Positions 1,243-51,726 of a stretch of 64,000 bases of DNA are shown here, one piece after another. This DNA is from a virus, in the IMG/VR virus record IMGVR_UViG_3300042731_011014, positions 32,001 through 96,000 of that record. One strand, given 5' to 3'. The position numbers and the translations under genes were made by a program. The notes beneath the pieces were generated by a model that saw only the letters and a list, made by a program, of their open reading frames with translations, ran no database searches and had not been told where the DNA came from. Each line of letters begins with the position of its first letter. The first letter of the stretch is position 1.

Positions 1243-4200
1243 CCCTTTGTCCTTTAAGGTAACCTTTTCTTTTGTAAAACTTTTCCCTACTTAAATACAT
1301 ATTGTTAAATTCAGGAATCATACTATCAACCATGTCAACTATTATAACAGGGGTTTTTTTACCCTTATCGTATCTAGCGGCCCTTCCGACAGCTTGCTCA
1401 ACGTCAGACATGGGAGATGCTAATACCTCTGTATCAATATCAGGTATGTCCAATGCTTGAGACGCCATTTGAAAAGTCGCAAAAATAACTTGGGCTCGCT
1501 CTGCTTTTTTTAACTCATCATCAGTTCTTTTTTTCTTTTTTCGTTTTTTATTCTCATCAACCTCATTGGTAAACCATTGGCCTGTATAATAATCAACAAC
1601 CGTACATGGACCAAGTTTAGTATCTAAAAAATAATCCTTAATTCTATCAAGGTGAAATAAAGATGATGATAGAACAATTACTTTCCTTTTAGCCTCAACT
1701 ATTCTCTCTAATTCAAGAGCTATTCTTTGATTCCTTTTCTTATTAGCATAAAGGAACTTTAGCTTAATCTCTTTTGGGAGTTTACCTGGATCAACTTTAT
1801 CCGTCTTAATTATATCAAATCCAGTCCACACCCTTTTAACAATAATATCCATCTTTTTGGTATTAGATTTGTATCCAACCCTACCAATATGATATAGGAA
1901 AACCTTTTCCGTTCCATCTTTCCTTCTTGGAGTCGCTGAATTGTGTACAAGTATTCCACTAGAAACAAATGAACAGTGACCACAAACTTCAAGATCGTAA
2001 ACATATTTTGGCCGAGCAACATCTCGAATCTCTCGCACAATTCCCTCGGCAAAATTCATGTCTCCATGAACAAATCTCCTCCTACTACCATATCGCCCAT
2101 ATGAATTACCATCGAGAGCATGTTTTGAAAAATACACAACATATTTTATTCTCCTGCCTTTTATTCTTCTACCATCAATCATTCCACCACTCACCCTCTC
2201 ACTCACAGAGCACCCAGATAATACCCCAAGACTTCTAAGTAACGATTGACATCCATATGCAAGGCTCTTAGAAGTAGTAGTAAAATGGTAACTTTTCTTA
2301 TCACCATCCCTCTCACTTAAACTACCATCTGAATCAAGTAGCCCCATTAAAAGTTCCATCCTGTCGTTTTTTTTCCATCCAACTATCCACTCCCCAGGAA
2401 TCCATTTTTTATAACAATAAATCTTATCACCCCAAACTGATCGAAATATTTCCGCAACAATCCTATTAGAGTATCCTACTTGACAACTACCTTGTCTTTT
2501 TTCTGTCGATAATTTCCAATTCACCCATCTCAAATCAGACATCTTCTCGATAAAATTAGAAACATCCCTCTCCTTAACAGAGAAACATATTTTACCACCA
2601 TCTAACCACCCATTGCCAAGCCAAAATCCAAACATATAAGCCCAGTCTCTAAGTTCTACTACGCATGATACATACGTACCACTTGCACCCTCTGTATAAA
2701 TCAACTCAGGATCACTCAAAAACTTTCTTTTTCTAATAAATTCTTTTATTGGCAGCCTGCTACCATATTTACCATTTAAATATCTCCACCTGGTTTTTGA
2801 ATCATATTCTTTAACATCTTCTCTGGTTAATCCAACAGCTACATGGACCTTGCTTAAATTAATAGCAGATTTCATAATAATAGATGGAACATCTATAGAA
2901 CCTAAAGAACCACCTCCCCACTCATTCCCATTATCTACAAAAAGACAATCACCTTCAACAATATCCGCGACTCTACACTTTTCAATACCTGCTATTTCCT
3001 TCTTTTTCCCATTTACATACTTGTAATCCAACCCAGCAACTCTAAATATCTCGTGACTTGCAGTAGCTACCAACCTGTTTCCCGACACTGTCAGCTCTTT
3101 AACATTATCGGTACAATTATGCCGGAATATTTTCTTAACCTCCTTCCATTTAAAATCTCTACCACTCCAACCTCTACTGCTAATTCCAGAATTTCTTGTA
3201 TCAATAACTCCATCCTTCTCTGAAAAAAACCTTGAAGCCATAGAATACGCATCCTGTATTTTTCCAACCCAACCACGCCCAAAAATTCCACCTCTCAATT
3301 CCACAACAGATTCTGGGCCAACACTAAGACCAATGCGATTCCTTGCCCTGAACATGGGCATTAATGGCGAAAATGTTGGAGCAGATATCCTATGCACCTC
3401 GTCGGCGATAACTAATCCTGGCCAATCATAAACCTCTTGAGGATATTTACCTTTTCTCATTGATTGCATCATGCCAATTACAACGTCACATCCGCTCGTT
3501 TGACATATATTAGATCTAATAAAGCCAACCTTAACACCTGGAACAAATTCCTCAAGCCTAGCCTTCCATTGATTCATTAAAAACTCGCGATCAACTAGAA
3601 CAAGCGTTGACATTCCAATCGTTGCTATAATTGAACACGCCACAACCGTGTTATGAGTTACTGTAAAATCACCCAATAAGAATCTGCCATCACTATCAAG
3701 TTCAAATCCAGCATACTCACCAACACCATCATCCCTAATGCTAATACCTGTCCTTGTAGCACATTTTATTTGTTTCCTTTCTCCGGGAAACTTCCTCTTT
3801 ATCCTCATTGGGATATCTTTAAAATCACCGGAAACAATCATCCTATAGCAAGTTTTGCTATTAACAACTTTCTCACTAACTGTAACCATAAAACCAAGAG
3901 ACCTAGCTAAAAAACATATACCATCCGCATAACCTTTTCTTGATTGAATTATCTCCATGCACCCGCCAGCATTATTTCCATCAGTATCTAAAATACCAGC
4001 AAAAAATTCTCTTCTATTGTATCTGGAAGATACAAGAAACTTTTTTGGTATACTGCAAGAATTCCTCCCAAAAATATCCCTCATCAACGAAAGCAACCTG
4101 TTACTACCACCACGTTCTCCACATGTTATATGATATGTTGGACAGCCGTTGTAAGAATAATCTGTTCTAACAAAAAGATCAAATTTTCTCGCAATCCTAT

Positions 4201-18088: not shown

Positions 18089-18289
18089 ATGGAAGAAAGA
18101 AACGAGCACACCTATTCCTACTATAGCGGGGGGGGGTACTACCCCAAATTAGGGAAGTTCGGGACGGAGCTTATTAAAAAGAATAAAAAATTCGGATATT
18201 CCTTTGATTACAAAGGAATCTCCCATGGCCCATACGCTTCATGGGAAGAAGTCGTAAAAGCATTACGAAAATATCACAATAAACTTTAG
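18089..18289 (+). CDS. small hypothetical protein (66 aa) containing a G9 tract
   Basis: RBS AAAGGAG; GGGGGGGGG at 18128-18136. Confidence 0.7.
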   Translation: MEERNEHTYSYYSGGGYYPKLGKFGTELIKKNKKFGYSFDYKGISHGPYASWEEVVKALRKYHNKL

Positions 18290-18765
18290 GATCCTTCATT
18301 TTTTTTACCCAGTGCCGCCTTTATAGCTTTTATAGCTGCTTCCTTCATATTATCATCAATATCACCGTGTGTATGATCATAATCGAGCATCTTAACATTT
18401 AGGTCTTCAGCAAGATCTCTAGCTATCTTCCTATCAACAGCTTCGCGAATTGACTTCCATTCATCTGGATTATTTATCAATGACTGTGGTATACCGAATT
18501 CGTCATACTTTTCATCAATCTTGATACCTAGATCGTGAGCTGCCTTGCTAACGATCTCAATTTTTCCACCAACAAATTTCATAAAATTATCCAGACAATC
18601 TACAACCTTTTTCATTTCATTATCCAGATCCTTATCCACACCTTTGTTAAGTTCAAGATCATCACAGATCACGACCCTGCAAGTTGCTACACGATCTAGT
18701 ATCAATTTTACTCGATCCAAAAAATCAGACATGTCAGTACCTATTTGTTCTATTACTGTGCGCAC
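18286..18765 (-). CDS. hypothetical protein (159 aa)
   Basis: ORF track; converges on the plus-strand pair. Confidence 0.6.
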   Translation of the reverse strand: MRTVIEQIGTDMSDFLDRVKLILDRVATCRVVICDDLELNKGVDKDLDNEMKKVVDCLDNFMKFVGGKIEIVSKAAHDLGIKIDEKYDEFGIPQSLINNPDEWKSIREAVDRKIARDLAEDLNVKMLDYDHTHGDIDDNMKEAAIKAIKAALGKKNEGS

Positions 18766-19102
18766 CTTTACCAGTAACCGCTTTTATTCTTTGTGTCAAC
18801 TTACATCCCCTTGCTTTTACACATCCATACCGCTGACACCCACAATCAAGTGTAAGTATTTCACCTTTTTCTGTAATCAAGTCACAGGAACAATAGCCAT
18901 CCCCATCGGAATCTTGACTTGCACACGTTAAGCTTTTGATTTCACCAAGATTATCCGCGTACTCGGTAGCAGCCTTTAACGCCGCAGCATAATCGGCCCC
19001 GCAACTACCTATACCGCCAATAACCGCTGAACCGATAATCAAAACAACGGCCACACAAATAAGCAATTCACCTAGAGTTAATCCGCTTTCTCTTTTCATC
19101 AT
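18734..19102 (-). CDS. type IV pilin-like protein (prepilin class III signal, Cys-rich C-domain)
   Basis: MMKRESG|LTLGELLICVAVVLII has a basic leader, Gly at -1, Glu at +5 and a hydrophobic helix; C-domain has 7 Cys and DSDGDG. Confidence 0.7.
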   Translation of the reverse strand: MMKRESGLTLGELLICVAVVLIIGSAVIGGIGSCGADYAAALKAATEYADNLGEIKSLTCASQDSDGDGYCSCDLITEKGEILTLDCGCQRYGCVKARGCKLTQRIKAVTGKGAHSNRTNRY

Positions 19103-19137
19103 CCTTTTCCTTTCTTTATCGTTAAACTCTCAATATC

Positions 19138-19305
19138 CTATTTGCTGATCTTCTTTTCGTAATCTCTTAATTTTTTTACCGCCTCCAGCAGTGATGTTTC
19201 TGCAACCGCACTTGATTGAATCCCTATTGCACCAGCCCATGATTTAGCATACCTTACAATCTCTTCCTTTAGTCCTTGTAGTTTTTTTCTTTGATTACTT
19301 GTCAT
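19138..19305 (-). CDS. small hypothetical protein (55 aa, MTSNQRKKLQGL...)
   Basis: Open frame filling the gap, with an upstream GGAG RBS. Confidence 0.5.
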   Translation of the reverse strand: MTSNQRKKLQGLKEEIVRYAKSWAGAIGIQSSAVAETSLLEAVKKLRDYEKKISK

Positions 19306-19321
19306 CCCGGCTCCGCAGTGC

Positions 19322-19840
19322 TTACAAACAACACCTATAATACGTTATAAAAGAAAAGCTAACCTTTTCCTTTGACCTTCTATCGACACCTTTTGCATTT
19401 TCTTTATAGGCCAATCTCCATTTACTAAAATCAATGTTAGGGAAAAATGTATCAGCATCATAATCTCTATCTATTACAGTCAATTCAAGCACTGATGCAA
19501 TATCAAGTCCGGCCTTATAGATCCTTGATCCACCTATAAGAAAAGCTCTATTTTTGCAACCACTTTTTACATGCTTTATAGCATCATTAAAGTTATTGTA
19601 AACCGTAACATTGTCAGGATCAAACCCACTGTCAGATGTTAAAACAATATTCTCTCTTTTAGGTAATGGTCTGGATTTTTTAGGAAACGATTTATATGTC
19701 CTTATCCCCATAATACACGGGTAACCCATCGTAAGTTTTTTAAATCTAACAAAATCCTCTCTAATACTCCAAGGTATCTTGCCATTAATACCAATGGCGT
19801 TATTTCGCGCAATAGCAGCTATAATCGTAAAATCGACCAT
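19322..19840 (-). CDS. folA: dihydrofolate reductase
   Basis: IIAAIARNNAIGINGKIPW...EDFVRFKKLT..IMG.RTY.S..RPLP.REN, IGGSRIY, DADTFFP. Confidence 0.95.
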   Translation of the reverse strand: MVDFTIIAAIARNNAIGINGKIPWSIREDFVRFKKLTMGYPCIMGIRTYKSFPKKSRPLPKRENIVLTSDSGFDPDNVTVYNNFNDAIKHVKSGCKNRAFLIGGSRIYKAGLDIASVLELTVIDRDYDADTFFPNIDFSKWRLAYKENAKGVDRRSKEKVSFSFITYYRCCL

Positions 19841-24759: not shown

Positions 24760-26253
24760 CTACAATGCAGTATTTTCGTGAAGCGTAGGCTCTTCTGACG
24801 AATTCATTCTCACTATGAACTCATGTAGGTTTTTGTTTATCTGTAGTACACTCTGGGCTCGTGTAGTGGCCACATAGATCAGGTTTAGCTCTTCAGGATC
24901 CATGTCTTTAGGGCTCACCAGTTCCCCCATATCGCCAAATAGAGATTCGAAGTCATCTACTAGCCTCACCTGGTCAAACTCCAGCCCCTTAGCCTTGTGG
25001 CAGGTTGAGAACACTATTTCTGCATTATCCTGCTCAACAGTAGCAGTCCTGATCGCCTTCACAAGATCAGGTATCCGCGTACCGTACTGATCAACGACAG
25101 TACATCGGGTAGTCAACTCAAAATCCTCAACTTCCTTGGCGAACTCTTTAAGATCTGAGTACCTATTAAAACTAGCTATATACGGATCTCTGATAAATTC
25201 TTTATTGCCGCATGCCAGCCAGTAGGTATCTACAATTAAATCGAATCTATATCCATTAATCCCACCTACAAAGGCAATTTTCTTACTCAAATGGTTTTCA
25301 ACAATCTCCCTAAAAAGTCCTGAATTCGTTCGGGCAATTACTGCACACTTACCACTAGCATCCCCTATCTCGCTGTTATAAAAATCAGATCCGATAATAG
25401 AGTTTTTTTCCCCACGAAACTGCTGCAACAAAAGTGATGCAAGATCGGCGATTTTCTGACCAAATCGAAAGCTTTTGGTTAAATACTTAATTTCAGTCGC
25501 TTTTATCTCCTCAAGAAAATTTTTACAACCTCTCCAACCATAGATTGCTTGGTACGGATCACCTACCAAAATCTTGGGACATTTTTGCATAAAAATAAAA
25601 TCTGCTGTCACCGGGTTCGTATCTTGAGCTTCGTCAAGCATGATGCAATCAAAATTCAATCTTGGTTTTGATAGCTGATAAATCTTTAGATATCCATCAT
25701 GTAGCATACCAATGGATTCATCACTTCTATCGGCCATTTTTTTCCAAATATCTTTAGCCATTTTAACGAGATTATTCATTTTTAATTTAAGATCGCCTTT
25801 TTTGTCAGAATCGCTATTATTTTTCAGGTATTCAAACCCCATTGGTGTTATATGCTTCGCAGATATTAGATTATCGTCCGACACCAAATATGCGGTAACT
25901 GCATCCATCGCAAAACGCACCTTCTTGTAGTTATTAACCGACAATGCATCACATACGGTATTTACTTTCAAACTCGATATTAGCTTGTGTCTATACTTTG
26001 CTCCAAAATTACGCCAAGCTAAGCTATGGGAAGTCTTTGCAGTTACATTTTTAGGGAATTTTTTCTGCGCCTCAAGCTGAACACTTTTATTAAACGCAAC
26101 ATAAAGAAACTCAGTTTTAGGCCTTGCCTTGGCATACTCGACAAGCGTTGAAGTTTTGCCGGTCCCTGCAAACGCCATTACCTTTAAAACATCCCTGTCA
26201 TTAAGATCAAAATCAACTATATCATTCTGCTCTGCGGTCATTCGCATAAACAT
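24760..26253 (-). CDS. UvrD/Rep-like (FBH1-like) superfamily 1 DNA helicase
   Basis: MAFAGTGKT, LDEAQD, VGDPYQAIYGWRG, SFRFG, STCHKAKGLEF, YVATTRA. Confidence 0.92.
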   Translation of the reverse strand: MFMRMTAEQNDIVDFDLNDRDVLKVMAFAGTGKTSTLVEYAKARPKTEFLYVAFNKSVQLEAQKKFPKNVTAKTSHSLAWRNFGAKYRHKLISSLKVNTVCDALSVNNYKKVRFAMDAVTAYLVSDDNLISAKHITPMGFEYLKNNSDSDKKGDLKLKMNNLVKMAKDIWKKMADRSDESIGMLHDGYLKIYQLSKPRLNFDCIMLDEAQDTNPVTADFIFMQKCPKILVGDPYQAIYGWRGCKNFLEEIKATEIKYLTKSFRFGQKIADLASLLLQQFRGEKNSIIGSDFYNSEIGDASGKCAVIARTNSGLFREIVENHLSKKIAFVGGINGYRFDLIVDTYWLACGNKEFIRDPYIASFNRYSDLKEFAKEVEDFELTTRCTVVDQYGTRIPDLVKAIRTATVEQDNAEIVFSTCHKAKGLEFDQVRLVDDFESLFGDMGELVSPKDMDPEELNLIYVATTRAQSVLQINKNLHEFIVRMNSSEEPTLHENTAL

Positions 26254-26259
26254 TATTAT

Positions 26260-26499
26260 CTGTTCCTTATTTGTTGCTCAAAGTTACTGTTCTACAGGTA
26301 ATTCGCTCTCAGTTGATACCAAATCTTTGGTGCAACTTGAGTCTTGGTTGAGCAGTCCCAACCGGTAGCTATCAGTCCGTTTTTGCAATATGGATTTCAC
26401 TTCCTTAAAGTTTGTCCAACGATCTATCTCAGGATCATATAATCTTGCTAAAACGTTTTTAGCAGCATTCTCATCAGCCTGATATACTTCCCCTATAAT
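26260..26499 (-). mobile_element. TnpB 3'-terminal fragment (RuvC-III region and putative guide-RNA scaffold); no start codon, no transposase
   Basis: Frame 26499->26284 reads IIGEVYQADENAAKNVLARLYDPEIDRW...RLGLLNQDSS...STESELP; AD-x-NAA-x-N[IV] is the TnpB RuvC-III motif. Confidence 0.7.
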
Positions 26500-26731
26500 T
26501 TAACTCCTTAAACTCTCTTATCTCATCAAACTCAGTTAGCATAATCCTTATTGATAATGATCTCGGCTGTGGCTTGACATAGATATTTCCAATTTCACTA
26601 GCATATATTGCTGATAACCCTAGGCAAATATCCTTTCTTTTACTCACCATCTCCCCTATCTTCTCATTCCTGAGGTACACTACATACTTCACCCCAAACA
26701 AAAACCTTTTTATCTCGCCTAGAATATTCAT
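26474..26731 (-). CDS. hypothetical protein (probable start MNILG at 26731); stop codon lies inside the TnpB fragment
   Basis: RBS GGAG before 26731; last codons overlap the TnpB remnant. Confidence 0.55.
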   Translation of the reverse strand: MNILGEIKRFLFGVKYVVYLRNEKIGEMVSKRKDICLGLSAIYASEIGNIYVKPQPRSLSIRIMLTEFDEIREFKELNYRGSISG

Positions 26732-26732
26732 C

Positions 26733-27329
26733 TTATCTCCTTTTAGGTACATCAATAATTTTCTCTTCACCCAATCCGTGTTTTAGAAATTTAATTATTT
26801 TTTTCAGATCCTCCCACGATTCCCCTTTTTTAGAGGGATTCCTAAGCAGATAGGCAGGGTGATATGTCGGCATTACTGGAATTTCGCAGTGTGACTTATA
26901 AAACTTTCCACGTAACCTAGTTATACCAATATCAGTTTTTAGTATTGTTTTCGTGGCCGGATTACCTAACGTTACTAATAATTTTGGTTTGACAATATCT
27001 ATCTGCCTACTAAGATAATCAAAACACATCTCTATCTCATGTTCTTTTGGATCTCTATTATCTGGCGGGCGACATTTGATGGTATTTACCACGGATACAT
27101 CATCCCTTGAAAGTCCCATCGCTTTCACCATTTTTGTTAATAATTGACCAGCAGATCCAACAAAAGGCCTACCTATTGCGTCTTCACGAGCACCAGGGGC
27201 CTCGCCTATAAACATTATTTCAGAATCAAGCTTTAGCACCCCTGGTACAACTCTATTTCTAACTCTCTGCAATCCACACATTGAACAGTCGCCAATTTCT
27301 TCCTCTAATTTTTTAATCTCATCAATCAT
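26733..27329 (-). CDS. udg: uracil-DNA glycosylase family 4 (Fe-S)
   Basis: CSMC, FIGEAPG..ED..GRPFVG.AG, KCRPP.NR.P, C...., TYHPAYLLRN. Confidence 0.93.
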   Translation of the reverse strand: MIDEIKKLEEEIGDCSMCGLQRVRNRVVPGVLKLDSEIMFIGEAPGAREDAIGRPFVGSAGQLLTKMVKAMGLSRDDVSVVNTIKCRPPDNRDPKEHEIEMCFDYLSRQIDIVKPKLLVTLGNPATKTILKTDIGITRLRGKFYKSHCEIPVMPTYHPAYLLRNPSKKGESWEDLKKIIKFLKHGLGEEKIIDVPKRR

Positions 27330-28139: not shown

Positions 28140-31100
28140 CTAGGAGCATCCACTAGTTCCACCGCAATTATCGCACTTATAGCACGATCCAGATCTGCTC
28201 ATCAGTGCACCGCACTCTCTGCATGTTGGCGCATCAATATCAATAATATAAGCATCACTGGCTATATTTTTCTCATTATCATCATCTAGCATTAAATAGT
28301 GTTTTCCGCCTGGAAAATTACGATCAAGCCATCTAAAAATATAATCCATTATGGACTTAGCCATCCTGATTTCAGGATTATCGGTAATACCTGATGGTTC
28401 AAATATAGTAAATGAGAATTTATCAACCCATACTTTTAAGGGAACTCCATGTTGTAATCCTATTGAAATCGCCGTCGCGAAGCTATCCATTAGTCCTCTA
28501 ATTGTACTACCTTCTTTGGCAACATTAATAAAAATCTCACCAATAAAACCAGATTCATACATACCAGCAGTAATATACCCCTTGTGACCCCCAATATTAA
28601 ACCTGTGAGTAACACTGGATCTGGTATTTGGCATTTTAGCTCTGTTTACTGTTGGCGGCTTAATGATATGCTTATTGGACTCCTTTTTTTCATCCATTGA
28701 CGTGTTTAACGGTTGAGTTCTTTTGCACCCATCACGATAAACTGTAATGGATTTCAGTCCAAGACGCCAAGCTTGAATATAAGCATTTTTTATATCTTCA
28801 ACAGTAGAATCACTAGGCATATTAACAGTTTTACTAATAGCCCCCGAGAGAAATGGTTGAACAGCAGCCATCATTTTAATATGACCCATATAATCTATCA
28901 TACGACCATTCGTTGACGACCTAAGCGAACAATCAAAAACAGCAAGATGATCTTCTTTAATATAAGGAGATCCGTCAATTGTGCCTTTCTTTTCTATATA
29001 ATCTACTATTTCCTCTATCTGTACACTATTATATTTGAGACTTTCTAAGGACCCCACAACCGACTGATTAACTATCTTTACAGTTCCTCCGCCAACCATT
29101 TTTTTATACTTTACAAGCGCAAGTTCAGGCTCAATACCGGTTGTGTCACAATCCATCATAAAACCAATAGTCCCGGTCGGCGCTAATAATGTTGTCTGCG
29201 CGTTTCTACACCCATAGCCATCTTGTAACCAAGTCTTGGCCTGAGCCCATCTTTCAAAAATCCTTTTATAAAAATCATTACTAATATAATATTCACTAAT
29301 CTTAGTGCTTTCATGGGCATGTCTACCGATTATATTTTCATCCATATGTTTACAATCAAAACCCTCAAATGAACCCCTCTCCTTTGCCATCTCAATACTG
29401 GTACAATATGCCTCTGCTGTCATTAAAGACGTTACAGCAGCGGCAAAACCTCTCCCCTTTTTACTATCATAGGGTATACCCTTACTCATTAATAACGCAC
29501 CCAAATTAGCATAACCAAGGCCAAGCGTCCTGTACTTATGGCTATTCTCTTTAATTTTCTTAGTTGGATAGCCCGACTTATCTACAAGTATATCCTGCGC
29601 AATAATCATGATTCGCACAACATGCGAAAATAAATCAAAATTAAATTCTCCATTTTCGTTGAATTTTTTTAGATTAATACTGGCAAGATTGCACGCACTA
29701 TTATCCAGAAACATATACTCACCACAATTATGCACACACAGTCCATTTGCCAAACCAATGTTAGTAATCGGGCAACTAAAATCATAAACATCATCTTTTC
29801 CACAACTCTCAACTGATATAATCTTTAAGAAGTTTCTCCTCGATCCAGAATAACTATCTACAACACTATTGGCATTACATATCAATCTAAGTTTTTCTTG
29901 TTGACATCTCTGCGGAAAACCAATAAATTTCGCAAACTTTATTCTATCGATCATATCGGTAATTTCAAGATGATATGATTCTTTACTAACATATTCACCA
30001 TTTGGCCATAAAATATTAACTTCCTTATTATGACACCTAACCGAACTTGATATATCCATAGATTGTAATAGCAATTGAACATTATTAAGCATTTCCTTGC
30101 ATGTAGATACAAGCCTAATAGCCTCATTTGAATCGCAACATACATTCCCATTGGCACCAAAAAGGCCTCTTAAAAACGAACATTGTGCATTATGCGTAAG
30201 ACCAAAAAGAAAATTTGGTAAATCCCTGTCTGGTAGTGCAGACATATCCATACCAATTTCTTCTAACCAGTGAAAAAAATAACTACTAGAAAATACATAA
30301 CACCTTTTATTTAGATTATAAGACGGATCCGTTTTATTAATATCAGAAAAAATAGGCAATACTGTATTCTCGATAAATTCAGTGTCCTTTCCTTTGGTAA
30401 AATAAAGAGATACGACACGGCTACTCTTATTGTATCCACCATCCCCTTGGAGAAAACCCAAAGACTCCATTAATATTTTTGAAGCATAAGAATAGTACTT
30501 TCCAGTCTTTCCAGTTATACATTTTGGAATTTTATTCGCCAGATCACTCCCAGCATTACCCTGTAATACGCATGGAATAATAAGTCCCCTTGACTCAACC
30601 GCTGGAACAAACCCTATTTCAGTTAGTATCCTATGATCACCGGTTAACCTTATTTCATGACCTCTATTGGTTTTTATCTTAACAATATCTTTTACCCCCG
30701 TCTTCCAAACTTCACCTTTTACATATCCAAATCCATCAAATATTCCAACGGATTTTCCATCAAGATCTTCTACTTTTTTCCACCCAGAAGATGTTAATAA
30801 TCTGGTACCCCTACTAATACATGGATTACTAGAGTTAATTCTACCCTCTGATGGCACTGTATTCCAACTATTTATGGTAGTATCAAATTGGATCCCAGGA
30901 TCACCGCAAACATGTGCAGCCTCAGCAATAGCCGTAAAAACATCTCTAGCCTTAACCCTATCAATAGCTTTACCGTCAGTTACAGCTATCAAATCATAGA
31001 AGTCATCGTTTTCATATGCTCCCATAAACTCATCAGTTACCCTAACACTATTATTGGCATTCTGATAACATACCGTATTGTAAGCATCGCCATTTATAGA

Positions 31101-33935
31101 TCCATCATAACCAGCATCTATTAGAGCCCATGCCTTTTTTTCCTCTTTAACTTTACAATTAATAAAGTCCATTATATCTGGGTGATTTACGTTTAATATT
31201 GCGATCTTAGCAGCCCTGCGCGTATTAAAAACAGCAATACCTGATCCGGATTTTCTACCATCACTCCATATTACAAAATTATGACCACTATTTTCTGTTT
31301 TATCATCATTTGTCTCACAAAAAACCTCAACATCGTATGAATCGTGAATACCGATGCTTTCCACCCTCAACACTCTGTGATTATCCTCCTTAACCTCTTT
31401 TAGAAAACTTTCATACCCACCAAAATTGTTTTCTATTGACTCTAGTATTTTTTTCGCAGACGAGAAATTACCAATAATTTTTTTTCTATTTTCACAATAA
31501 AGATCAAATGTATCAATACATCCACCATTATTGATAATCCTGTAAGCTAAATTCTTCATCCTTTTTCTAACAGAAAGCTTTTGCAATTCAGATGGATTTC
31601 TTTTTTTCATACCATCCCTTTGCTTTTTTCTATACTCCTCAACCTTCTCAGAATTCTTCCAAAAAACAGAATCAGCATGCATTCCATTTAGTTTTTCAGA
31701 TCTTGAAAATTTTCTTTTCGAAAAAACATGACTCCCTTTTTCAAATAACTCTTTTCCATGAATCGAAGCATGTTCTGATTGAGGCATAATTTTTAAATTA
31801 GAAATATCGTTGTTCATCCTGTCCCCATCAATATGATGAACAATATCGCCATTTTTACACTGTAAAATATCCTCTGCGACTAACCTATGGAGGTGATTTT
31901 TCCCTTTGAGACCATCTCTTAGATTAACTCTTAAATATCCACTATTTTCTGATATCACACAAGAAAACAAGGACATGCCTTCTCTAAGGTTTCCAGCATT
32001 TACTGTATTCCCATCAGCCATTCTAATTGGATGATCATACGAGACCTCGAAAAAGCCTTTATCTGTAGTAATCCTAATCATCTCTTTTGGACTAGACTTC
32101 CATGCTTGAGCTTTTTTTGCTACATATCTATTCCTAGGGGGATCAAATGATAAGCATATAAACTCATCCAATTTCGCTAACTCTTCAACTCGAACTGGTC
32201 CATTGTTCGTATAGATTCTCTGCCATGGTATTAAACACTTACCTCCACTACGAATTACTCCAGCCCACGAATCATATCCACGCATAAAAGACACTGGTCC
32301 ACTAGCATACCCGCCACCTCTAACATGCTCCTTTGTGCTACGAAGCGTTGAAAAATTCGTGCCTGTTCCAGATCCATGCTTAAAAAGCATACCTTCAGTT
32401 TTAACAAGATCAAGGATTGAATCCATATCATCCTCAACCTCATTGATAAAACAATTATGAGTAACATACCCTTCATAAAGAAACTCTTCGTTTGAAGATT
32501 GTATATCAAAAACCTCTTCGGGCTCATCAAGCATTTTTATTGATTTTATCTTCACCCTATGCAAATCATGCTTTTGCTTTCCTTTTCTCGAAAAAGTTCC
32601 AAACAGCGCTTCATTTTTATCCTTAGCTAAAAAACCAATCCTCTCCCGGAAAATCTCCCTTTCACTCTCATATGATATATCGACACACCATGAGTCAAAT
32701 CTATCTTCTCTCTTATCCTTTTTTTCACCGTATCTAGAGAAAATACCAACACTTTGCAGTAACAATTGCACCCCATCAATAAAATCCCTGGGCATTCTAC
32801 TTAATCCCACAGAGTGTCTTTCTTTAGTAATATATCCATTGCACTGAAAAACACTTTTCAAATAAGATATTCTTGCTCTTATATTAGCCCCTTTAATTCT
32901 CTTGGGAACTCTAGCTTCCTTTTTTCTATACATAAGTTCATATTTTTCAATAAAGTCCCTAAATATCCTTCCATAAGATCTAAATCTAATAAAATCAATA
33001 TTAGGATCTTCTGTTTCCTCGGGAATCTCATTAAACTTAACATTTGGAAAAACTACATCTAAATGTTCTCTAATCCAGGATCTTTCATATTCATTAATTG
33101 TTTCAAATTCAACTATATAAGAATTACACTCATATTTTCCAATAAAACCATTACAAACAAGCCATCCAGCTAATGCAGCCTCACTTTCGCAAATCTGATC
33201 CCCTTGTTCAATTACCGTCCTTTGCCTCCATAAATAATCCCCAATATTTAACTCATCAACTCTTTTCCATTTACCATTACCTTTATGATGATGCGCAGAA
33301 AAAAACCTATGATCTGTAGTTGCGTACAATCTAGAACCATTAACAAGTTCTATTTCAATGACTTCCCTGAAACCGTTATTCTTCTTCGCCTCAAGACTCG
33401 CAACACCTTCCTTTGTTATCAACCCTATCTTAATCCCGTAACCATCTTCCAGCTTGTTATTAATAATATCCCTCATGGTCATCATTCCAAAATCGGTCAT
33501 AACAGTTGCATAACCAGGTAGGCATGCTGAACATTGCGGATTATCCTCAACACCCACGTTAAACCAAACAGGGCTATTAAACGCTGCATATTGTTTAATT
33601 AAGATGTACCTCAATTCGTCAAGAAAATTAGCTGCGTCATCATTATCAAAATATTCCTGCTCAATACCCCAATTTGTTATTGTCTTAGCCACCCGCTCAA
33701 CAAGGCTTATTACACTGTTTTCCCTTTCTAAGCTTCCTAGCTTTCCCCTAAAATACTTCTGAGCTACAATATTAAGCGCTGTCTGTGACCAATCTTTGGG
33801 CACTTCAACATTTTTTTGGCTAAAGAAGACTTCACCTTTTTCATTCGTAATTACAGCATCCCTTCTTTCGACCTCAATACCCATGTATGAATCACGAATT
33901 TTAATATCAGATGTTAGTATCCTATCTATTTTCAT
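28140..33935 (-). CDS. nrdJ: class II (B12-dependent) ribonucleotide reductase with three inteins, C-terminal TSCPD domain and Zn ribbon
   Basis: Exteins give FNSPVWFN, PQCSA|CF, GSGTGTNFS, GGK|TRRAA, SSNP|CGE, CNLASINL, APTGTIGF, ISKTVNMP, YRDG, terminal CRECG...CDNCG. Confidence 0.95.
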   Translation of the reverse strand: MKIDRILTSDIKIRDSYMGIEVERRDAVITNEKGEVFFSQKNVEVPKDWSQTALNIVAQKYFRGKLGSLERENSVISLVERVAKTITNWGIEQEYFDNDDAANFLDELRYILIKQYAAFNSPVWFNVGVEDNPQCSACLPGYATVMTDFGMMTMRDIINNKLEDGYGIKIGLITKEGVASLEAKKNNGFREVIEIELVNGSRLYATTDHRFFSAHHHKGNGKWKRVDELNIGDYLWRQRTVIEQGDQICESEAALAGWLVCNGFIGKYECNSYIVEFETINEYERSWIREHLDVVFPNVKFNEIPEETEDPNIDFIRFRSYGRIFRDFIEKYELMYRKKEARVPKRIKGANIRARISYLKSVFQCNGYITKERHSVGLSRMPRDFIDGVQLLLQSVGIFSRYGEKKDKREDRFDSWCVDISYESEREIFRERIGFLAKDKNEALFGTFSRKGKQKHDLHRVKIKSIKMLDEPEEVFDIQSSNEEFLYEGYVTHNCFINEVEDDMDSILDLVKTEGMLFKHGSGTGTNFSTLRSTKEHVRGGGYASGPVSFMRGYDSWAGVIRSGGKCLIPWQRIYTNNGPVRVEELAKLDEFICLSFDPPRNRYVAKKAQAWKSSPKEMIRITTDKGFFEVSYDHPIRMADGNTVNAGNLREGMSLFSCVISENSGYLRVNLRDGLKGKNHLHRLVAEDILQCKNGDIVHHIDGDRMNNDISNLKIMPQSEHASIHGKELFEKGSHVFSKRKFSRSEKLNGMHADSVFWKNSEKVEEYRKKQRDGMKKRNPSELQKLSVRKRMKNLAYRIINNGGCIDTFDLYCENRKKIIGNFSSAKKILESIENNFGGYESFLKEVKEDNHRVLRVESIGIHDSYDVEVFCETNDDKTENSGHNFVIWSDGRKSGSGIAVFNTRRAAKIAILNVNHPDIMDFINCKVKEEKKAWALIDAGYDGSINGDAYNTVCYQNANNSVRVTDEFMGAYENDDFYDLIAVTDGKAIDRVKARDVFTAIAEAAHVCGDPGIQFDTTINSWNTVPSEGRINSSNPCISRGTRLLTSSGWKKVEDLDGKSVGIFDGFGYVKGEVWKTGVKDIVKIKTNRGHEIRLTGDHRILTEIGFVPAVESRGLIIPCVLQGNAGSDLANKIPKCITGKTGKYYSYASKILMESLGFLQGDGGYNKSSRVVSLYFTKGKDTEFIENTVLPIFSDINKTDPSYNLNKRCYVFSSSYFFHWLEEIGMDMSALPDRDLPNFLFGLTHNAQCSFLRGLFGANGNVCCDSNEAIRLVSTCKEMLNNVQLLLQSMDISSSVRCHNKEVNILWPNGEYVSKESYHLEITDMIDRIKFAKFIGFPQRCQQEKLRLICNANSVVDSYSGSRRNFLKIISVESCGKDDVYDFSCPITNIGLANGLCVHNCGEYMFLDNSACNLASINLKKFNENGEFNFDLFSHVVRIMIIAQDILVDKSGYPTKKIKENSHKYRTLGLGYANLGALLMSKGIPYDSKKGRGFAAAVTSLMTAEAYCTSIEMAKERGSFEGFDCKHMDENIIGRHAHESTKISEYYISNDFYKRIFERWAQAKTWLQDGYGCRNAQTTLLAPTGTIGFMMDCDTTGIEPELALVKYKKMVGGGTVKIVNQSVVGSLESLKYNSVQIEEIVDYIEKKGTIDGSPYIKEDHLAVFDCSLRSSTNGRMIDYMGHIKMMAAVQPFLSGAISKTVNMPSDSTVEDIKNAYIQAWRLGLKSITVYRDGCKRTQPLNTSMDEKKESNKHIIKPPTVNRAKMPNTRSSVTHRFNIGGHKGYITAGMYESGFIGEIFINVAKEGSTIRGLMDSFATAISIGLQHGVPLKVWVDKFSFTIFEPSGITDNPEIRMAKSIMDYIFRWLDRNFPGGKHYLMLDDDNEKNIASDAYIIDIDAPTCRECGALMSRSGSCYKCDNCGGTSGCS
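29727..30821 (-). mobile_element. RNR intein 3, LAGLIDADG type, at the NP|CGE active-site Cys (aa 1039-1403)
   Basis: SSNP|CISRGT...NGLCVHN|CGE; blocks LGFLQGDG and FLRGLFGANG. Confidence 0.9.
31224..32237 (-). mobile_element. RNR intein 2 with HNH endonuclease, ending Phe-Asn (aa 567-904)
   Basis: GGK|CLIPWQ...SGIAVFN|T; HRLVAE...VHHIDGDRMNNDISNL..M...EHASIH. Confidence 0.88.
32454..33524 (-). mobile_element. RNR intein 1, LAGLIDADG type (aa 138-494)
   Basis: CSA|CLPGYATV...GYVTHN|C; blocks LAGWLVCNG and YLKSVFQCNG. Confidence 0.9.
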
Positions 33936-51383: not shown

Positions 51384-51726
51384 GCGGCGGAAACCCCTGA
51401 TTTCAATCAGGGGAGAAGCCGCCTAACAATTAACCACCAAATTATGCATACGAATAACATTGGGAGTTACCTCCCAATTCTCTGCTTTCGCAGGTAAAGG
51501 TCACCTCGGCAAAGTTAATGCACGGTTTTATATGCAAACAGCACTGGCTTAACCCCTTAGACCTGTTTAACCACTTGCCGTAGAGCCTGGGGCTGGTGAA
51601 GCACCCCAGGGTACCTATATATTCGTGCTTAACGTAGCTCAAGAAGTATTGCTCCTTTGCTTAGCCTGGTTAACATAAGGCCTGTAATCTCTCACAAGCC
51701 CTCGACTTCAGTCGAAGGTAGTTGAC
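51384..51726 (-). mobile_element. non-autonomous IS200/IS605 element carrying an IscB-type omegaRNA (HEARO-like) with iscB deleted
   Basis: Minus strand starts GTCAACTACC with hairpin CCTTCGACTGAAGTCGAGGG, then GTTAACCAGGCTAAG, CTACGTT, ACCCTGGGGTGCTTCACCAGCCCCAGGCTCT, GGTTAAACAG, CAGTG, TTGCCGAGG; ends with hairpin GGCGG..CCCCTGATTGAAATCAGGGG..CCGCC; flanked by ATAAA. Confidence 0.88.
51455..51726 (-). ncRNA. omegaRNA / HEARO scaffold (guide expected from the flank beyond 51726)
   Basis: Conserved motif order typical of IscB-associated RNAs, ending at a GGAGG RBS and vestigial ATG (MLFV...). Confidence 0.82.

Follow-up and report, generated by a model that had tools for sequence, protein, structure and literature searches.

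The window analysed here is a 64,000-nt stretch (bases 32001–96000) of a 177,890-bp IMG/VR virus record that CheckV rates as 100% complete; coordinates refer to the window unless stated otherwise. On its minus strand, a uracil-DNA glycosylase gene (26733–27329) is followed by an ORF of 85 or 98 aa (26474–26770; 85 aa counted from the ATG at 26731), by the relic described below, and by a gene for a UvrD-like SF1 helicase (24760–26253; Pfam UvrD-helicase and UvrD_C), whose protein has its nearest relatives, at 53% identity, in Desulfobacterales. The upstream ORF had no homologue at any length but itself among 1.84 billion representatives, and its stop and last 11 codons are supplied by element sequence. 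The relic lies in sense orientation with respect to the phage operon. Scanning for promoters and terminators at the relic revealed nothing above chance and, as neither stands out, it is probably co-transcribed with its operon neighbours.

Between the two neighbours, a stop-to-stop frame (26284–26499, minus strand) runs for 71 codons, starting IIGEVYQADENAAKNVLARLYDPEIDRW..., with no ATG, GTG or TTG at its head and with the motif QADENAAKNVLAR. A preliminary description of this DNA had reported this unannotated frame, with its RuvC-III motif and missing start codon, and had taken it for the 3′ end of a TnpB gene; the frame is present as described, and a search against TnpBs of 455–459 aa bore the assignment out (82% identity over 94% of length, E = 7e-26). 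Among 5.8 billion proteins searched (E at most 0.001), the 71-aa frame had 152 matches to longer proteins, the best being TnpBs of 455–461 aa that were 78–82% identical over 92–96% of the frame. Pfam alone recognised nothing in the frame, so detecting the homology needed the large protein search. In a profile built from 21 TnpB matches (A1), the fragment corresponds to positions 387–456 of 459 (E = 9.8e-36), and the homology to TnpB (IS605 OrfB/Cas12f1-like TNB) includes the RuvC-III D-x-N-A-A motif. The sole match among GenBank phages was an IS605 OrfB gene in a Helicobacter felis prophage (71% DNA identity). The tnpB remnant itself spans 26284–26492 (minus strand) and comprises ~70 terminal codons, among them those for the RuvC-III motif QADENAAKNV, and a TAA stop (26286–26284); its frame differs from that of the upstream ORF, and homology to relatives starts at an invariant GGGG (26493–26490). 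A complete TnpB with RuvC-I, RuvC-II and zinc ribbon is absent at the locus, which holds the last 70 codons only and is, judged by its sequence, a TnpB gene fragment and not a TnpB gene. Shorter TnpB proteins in the database were plain 5′-truncated TnpBs, not orphans of the relic's build.

The relic shows no decay in its sequence. It matches 75 of the 75 columns that are conserved at ≥90% in the other sequences, the top value of any sequence, and compared with five close relatives it carries four private changes, all conservative. Conservation this complete is equally compatible with a recent origin and with selection; of the two, youth is the simpler reading, because conservation extends to positions relevant for the lost protein alone.

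The right end (26260–26289, minus strand) consists of the direct repeats CAGTAAC and GAGCAAC and the terminus AAGGAACAG (26268–26260), whose last bases are the AG core. In alignments of 17 to 23 3′ ends, all 23 relatives aligned share the terminus ...AGGAACAG, past which the flanks diverge immediately, so that the boundary drawn in the preliminary description (...GGAACAG at 26260) proved exact. The two 6–7-nt motifs inside the right end (A2 columns ~245–268, window 26289–26273) are direct and not inverted repeats. They covary across the family (for example, GCGCAAC..GCGCAAG and TGATCAAC..TGATCAAG, compared with CAGTAAC..GAGCAAC in the window) and are probably binding sites of the transposase (TnpA). 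Adjoining the terminus is the guide-equivalent flank ATAATAATGTTTATGCGAAT (26240–26259, minus strand), which spans the first helicase ATG (26253–26251). The proposal that a guide is taken from the downstream flank agrees with this boundary, which makes the flank ATAATAATGTTTATGCG..., the start of the uvrD-like gene; from TnpB biology we infer that this flank could serve as a guide. Searching the window with the guide-equivalent 17-mer at up to 3 mismatches returned its own flank as the only match. The terminus AAGGAACAG also puts AAGGA 10 nt before the helicase ATG, and it thereby offers the helicase a predicted substitute ribosome-binding site.

Overlapping the 3′ end of the tnpB remnant and ending at the right-end terminus is a conserved structured RNA region (26260–26386, minus strand), a configuration characteristic of omega RNAs. 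A covariance model of this region (R2), built from 22 relatives with the window left out, matched the window over model positions 1–125 of 125 with 124.7 bits (E = 1.7e-23; rank 3 of 33 matches), and its matches in the 177,890-bp genome comprised the relic only. RNAalifold on 23 sequences predicted one 5-bp hairpin and one long hairpin. In helix 1 (GTTGG/TCAAC; 26347–26362, minus strand) 100% of cells were paired, with both-side changes in three of five pairs, while helix 2 (CTCA-GTTG ... CAAC-TGAG around the variable hairpin ACCAAAGATTTGGT; 26308–26341, minus strand) had both-side changes in 12 of 13 pairs. Taken over all 18 specified pairs in the 22 relatives without the window, 86% of cells were paired and 15 pairs had both-side changes. 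None of 500 shuffles reached the observed covariation, and pairing fell to 28–46% in slid-partner controls. Synonymous-codon identity across 23 tnpB genes was ~0.35–0.45 over most of the gene and rose to ~0.8 in the last ~45 codons, with an additional small peak near the invariant GGGG. The hairpins previously noted at the TnpB 3′ end (26362–26347 and 26341–26308) are thus both present and are the family's covariation-supported helices; the guide-RNA scaffold proposed there corresponds to the family's conserved structured RNA region, which the fragment carries. This scaffold region is intact in the relic, and its omega-RNA role is predicted. A further 5′ hairpin within the RuvC-III codons, GCTAAAAACGTTTTAGC, folds in the window and is absent from the family consensus fold.

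The opposite junction also carries element sequence. The window reads GAGTTAAATTATAG (26506–26493), which abuts the GGGG directly, and at the same place the two relatives whose 3′ ends are most similar read GAGTTGTAAATAG and GAGTTATAAATAG. The first three bases, GAG (26504–26506, minus strand), would be the TAM and include the AG core dinucleotide; the remaining 11 nt, TTAAATTATAG (26493–26503, minus strand), resemble the tips of the closest relatives (GAG-TTGTAAATAG in L006 and GAG-TTATAAATAG in L007) and appear to be all that remains of a left end of ~50 nt. A left end can be recognised in 12 family copies, and GAG stands before it in every one; all 12 read GAG, 8–10 nt, AG and then ..TTGAY. 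The left-end flank in family copies is often GGAG, and the TAM is inferable as GAG only, with no conservation further upstream. The tip is carried by the element: where one element occurs in different surroundings (L014/L018 and L022/L024), its copies cease to agree just before the GAG. A caution is that the tip comprises only 11 nt and that its match was recognised post hoc, although it is rare, with "GAG-N8-10-AG" ending at 0.2% of window positions and the clade-specific GAGTT-N4-6-ATAG at 3 of 128,000.

A second orphan, L016 (metagenome contig Ga0180732_1020240), has the same build: GAGCAAAACTTACAG(G) is followed directly by the final ~125 nt of tnpB and the right end, giving GAG, 12 nt and a shortened 3′ part that scores 115.7 bits with R2. 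A 249-aa ORF with a GLAAYNAGP motif, which we take to be typical of lytic transglycosylases, has its end fused to this remnant. In the two orphans the break falls immediately behind the tip AG, and the tip's final bases (ATAG or ACAG) look like the right-end terminus. Two other loci fall outside this comparison, one being too degenerate (40 bits; L056) to inform the junction and the other (L076) being cut 26 nt upstream. The earlier view of the locus as a 3′ end only, with no left end visible, is therefore not supported: GAG and an 11-nt tip stand at the left junction, as in the closest relatives and in L016.

Because the left-end tip is present at the junction and L016 repeats the build, we read positions 26506–26260 (minus strand, 247 bp) as, with high probability, an internally deleted insertion sequence of the IS607 family and not as a lone right end. 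Comparison with relatives shows the origin and anatomy of the element at the level of sequence. What would have been retained is the target-side GAG (inferred TAM, AG core), 11 nt of the left end, and the last ~233 nt with 70 tnpB codons and the complete right end; ~385 tnpB codons would have been lost, plus tnpA if it was ever present. In intact relatives the retained part would specify the structured 3′ RNA, that is, the predicted omega (right-end) guide-RNA scaffold. How the deletion arose, and any guide activity, we infer. Counting against this reading, a random deletion leaves the shared break after the tip AG unaccounted for.

The most likely site of the original insertion lies between AAGGAG and the start codon ATG of the gene for the UvrD-like helicase. 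The window GAG is part of this AAGGAG (26509–26504), likely the original ribosome-binding site of the helicase gene, in whose place the right-end terminus AAGGAACAG would now act, 10 nt before the ATG. The empty site was thus likely AAGGAG|ATAATAATG, with the ribosome-binding site, 6 nt and the helicase ATG; a fuller reconstruction would read ...TTTAAGGAG|ATAATAATG. A point against AAGGAG|ATAATAATG is that, without a stop, the upstream ORF would continue in frame through the junction and into the helicase gene, which is odd, but has a 1 in 3 chance anyway. Blastn and tblastn searches against GenBank phages, and an IMG/VR peptide scan with the helicase, turned up neither a close relative of the phage nor an empty allele. 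The only other contigs with the locus (L025 and L026) are 100% identical over ≥6 kb and have the insert, and the next helicase relatives are bacterial and without synteny.

The relic is assigned to its IS607-type family by descent only. In the close relative L006, the stop of a MerR-Resolvase serine recombinase overlaps the tnpB start, and C-termini of such serine recombinases (IS607 TnpA) lie upstream of tnpB in L006, L013, L014, L022, L033 and L050. Unlike these relatives, the relic locus has no serine-recombinase TnpA; in some other relatives, tnpB stands alone in phage-like contigs. The family has 23 loci in IMG/VR, among them a 217-kb contig bearing three copies and one of 412 kb bearing two, and the named sources of its proteins are Desulfobacteraceae, Thiomargarita, Beggiatoa, Thioploca and Chromatiaceae. 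A same-strand ORF of at least 60 aa starts 3–9 nt past the right end in 10 of 24 family copies (L006–L051). Insertion between a ribosome-binding site and a start codon, with the element bringing its own AAGGA, seems from these flanks to be a habit of the clade.

Several other observations concern individual relatives. The L014 element recurs at another site in L018 (Ga0172362_10114556) with a 4-nt deletion that shifts the tnpB frame, and the 3′ RNA region of this copy is intact despite the frameshift (118.6 bits). L022 and L024, from a metagenome contig and a Nanopelagicaceae MAG, are one element with a shared right flank and differing left flanks, a discrepancy that reflects a rearrangement or an assembly difference. 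In L009/L010 the end of a gene for a 313-aa Phage_integrase (tyrosine recombinase; 2060–3001) coincides with the start of a family tnpB, and a tyrosine recombinase is an unusual partner for TnpB.

In its present state the internally deleted element would be a non-coding, non-mobile relic. It is a single copy in its genome, where profile A1 matched the relic and one unrelated TnpB and nothing else, and the 178-kb phage genome contains no cognate TnpB; any guide activity would therefore need a TnpB in trans. The one intact IS607 of the phage (G000:C1 ~18,100–19,800; L005 1456–3127, minus strand; outside the window) encodes a 188-aa serine-recombinase TnpA that overlaps a 393-aa TnpB. It was rejected as parent or partner of the relic, to which its TnpB C-terminus and right end are unrelated; its TnpB belongs to a different clade. 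This resident element is visibly G+C-richer than the phage.

Guide action would thus be possible only if the host or a co-infecting phage supplied the cognate TnpB. Such a guide would direct cleavage at insert-free alleles (GAG + ATAATAATGTTTATGCG...) and would spare its own locus, where CAG replaces GAG beside the guide-equivalent flank, a substitution that, by analogy, should prevent self-cutting. We consider it rather unlikely that the relic works in this way today, as an orphan guide RNA transcribed by the phage, loaded by the TnpB of a host or co-infecting phage and cutting insert-free alleles, so as to drive its own copying or exclude competitors. In its favour, the scaffold is intact and scores among the family's best, and the family is frequent in large viral contigs, where several copies share a contig, as well as in Desulfobacterales and large sulfur bacteria, the phage's likely host range. 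Gene-less IS200/IS605 elements with omega RNAs that need TnpB in trans also exist (PMC10055086), and the same genome has two nuclease-less HEARO RNAs. However, the phage has no cognate TnpB, no independent promoter rises above chance, and the conservation of protein-only positions points to recency rather than to selection on the RNA.

The preliminary description had instead envisaged a lone right-end piece of ~233 bp (26492–26260), inserted without a left end at an AG microhomology in ...AAT TAT AGA TAA TAA TG, an account that we judge improbable. Here the empty site would read ...AATTATAGATAATAATG, the joint would be AATTATAG|ATAATAATG, and TTAAATTATAG would be phage sequence. The arithmetic of excising 26260–26492 does work, yielding a stop and a TAATG overlap, and AG is also the family's inferred core dinucleotide. 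Yet GAG and the tip of the closest relatives match the 14 nt that adjoin the fragment on its left, with the pattern repeated in L016; the site would need TAG, whereas all 12 recognisable left-end flanks have G at -3 (GAG); and no known IS607 step inserts a right end alone. The excision coordinates were slightly short, as the element reaches 14 nt further left, to 26506, and the ancestral stop/start junction proposed with them, TAATAATG (AAT TAT AGA TAA TAA TG), is unlikely because TTAAATTATAG belongs to the element.

That the remnant persists because it serves the helicase as 5′ leader and ribosome-binding site, its precise loss being harmless and its imprecise loss harmful, would fit the AAGGA that AAGGAACAG sets before the ATG and the recurrence of right ends just upstream of start codons in 10 of 24 copies, but such a role would account for the last ~10 nt only, not for 233 well-conserved nt, and is quite doubtful.

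Read as an internally deleted IS607 element, the locus invites comparison with several known systems. The IS607 element of C. botulinum has a GG core; TGGG at its left-end flank is used by both TnpA and TnpB, TCGG stands at its right-end terminus, and self/non-self discrimination at -3 has been shown experimentally (10.1101/2023.11.20.567912). The relic's family resembles this IStron in that relatives have a serine-recombinase TnpA, that the guide-RNA region overlaps the tnpB 3′ end and stops at the right-end terminus, and that flank and terminus share the core and differ at -3 (TGGG vs TCGG there, GAG vs CAG here). It differs in its TnpB clade (~455 aa), in having an AG and not a GG core, and in lacking a group I intron; the window copy, moreover, is without tnpA and retains only a small part of tnpB and the tip of the left end. 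Reading the locus itself as an IStron with a group I intron was rejected: neither Intron_gpI nor any other Rfam family matched at the locus, and the relatives' left ends are short, with only ~50 nt before tnpA.

PATEs are IS200/IS605 elements without genes, often with an encoded omega RNA that depends on TnpB in trans (PMC10055086). Like them, the relic is without a protein gene, keeps a predicted guide-RNA module and transposon ends, and would depend on a nuclease in trans. PATEs, however, retain functional hairpins at both ends, occur in multiple copies and move by means of a Y1 TnpA (PMC10055086), whereas the relic is of IS607 type, lies in a phage, has a left end reduced to an 11-nt tip and occurs once in its genome; functional ends on both sides and several copies were thus not found. 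RAGATH-18-derived RNAs, which accompany short (~390-aa) IS607 TnpBs (PMC11061315), are likewise IS607-associated TnpB guide RNAs, and the size of those TnpBs (~390 aa, PMC11061315) is close to that of the phage's resident 393-aa TnpB. At the relic locus no Rfam family reached its gathering threshold.

The same genome carries two HEARO RNAs (the omega RNA of IscB). One lies in the window (51494–51726, minus strand; 140.5 bits, full length), and the other (G000:C1:132388–132591, minus strand; 65.7 bits, below the cut-off) stands beside a 39-aa remnant of an IscB N-terminus (G000:C1:132226–132342, minus strand; Pfam RRXRR, 29 bits). A genome scan with one IscB-associated Pfam domain (RRXRR) found no intact IscB. 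These mini-elements are like the relic in having kept a guide-RNA scaffold and lost the nuclease gene; they differ in the nuclease, IscB (IS200/IS605 type), and in the RNA. Together with the TnpB relic, the phage therefore has three nuclease-less guide-RNA remnants.

As a concept, nuclease-less guide-RNA elements are already known for IS200/IS605. What is new is that the element is of IS607 type and lies in a phage, that the left-end-tip architecture occurs twice, and that two nuclease-less HEARO RNAs share its genome; the locus as it stands is a well-characterised relic, not a new system. It points to a route of decay in phages in which loss of the nuclease gene leaves the guide-RNA module and both termini pristine, a pattern found three times in one 178-kb genome. 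It also draws attention to a TnpB/IS607 clade that is common in large phages and whose right end brings a replacement ribosome-binding site, and whose GAG flank and CAG terminus suggest, by analogy, the same self/non-self logic as that shown experimentally in a distant IS607 element. Should a nuclease acting in trans make use of the orphan RNA, the RNA would represent a minimal selfish guide, an intermediate on the way from transposon guide RNAs to stand-alone guide loci.

A bolder and very doubtful extension is that the phage keeps its nuclease-less modules (one TnpB-type and two IscB-type HEARO) on purpose, borrowing nucleases from the host or a co-infecting phage so as to cut insert-free competitors and spread by repair, with the left breakpoint shared by two independent orphans marking a regular, transposase-mediated loss of the nuclease gene. 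Were this true, such borrowed-nuclease modules would amount to a guide-only gene drive.

Elsewhere in the window, a 1931-aa ribonucleotide reductase ORF (28140–33935, minus strand) has Pfam matches to intein-splicing and LAGLIDADG domains and a weak match to HNH, indicating one or more intein insertions and providing a further sign of the phage's heavy colonisation by homing elements.
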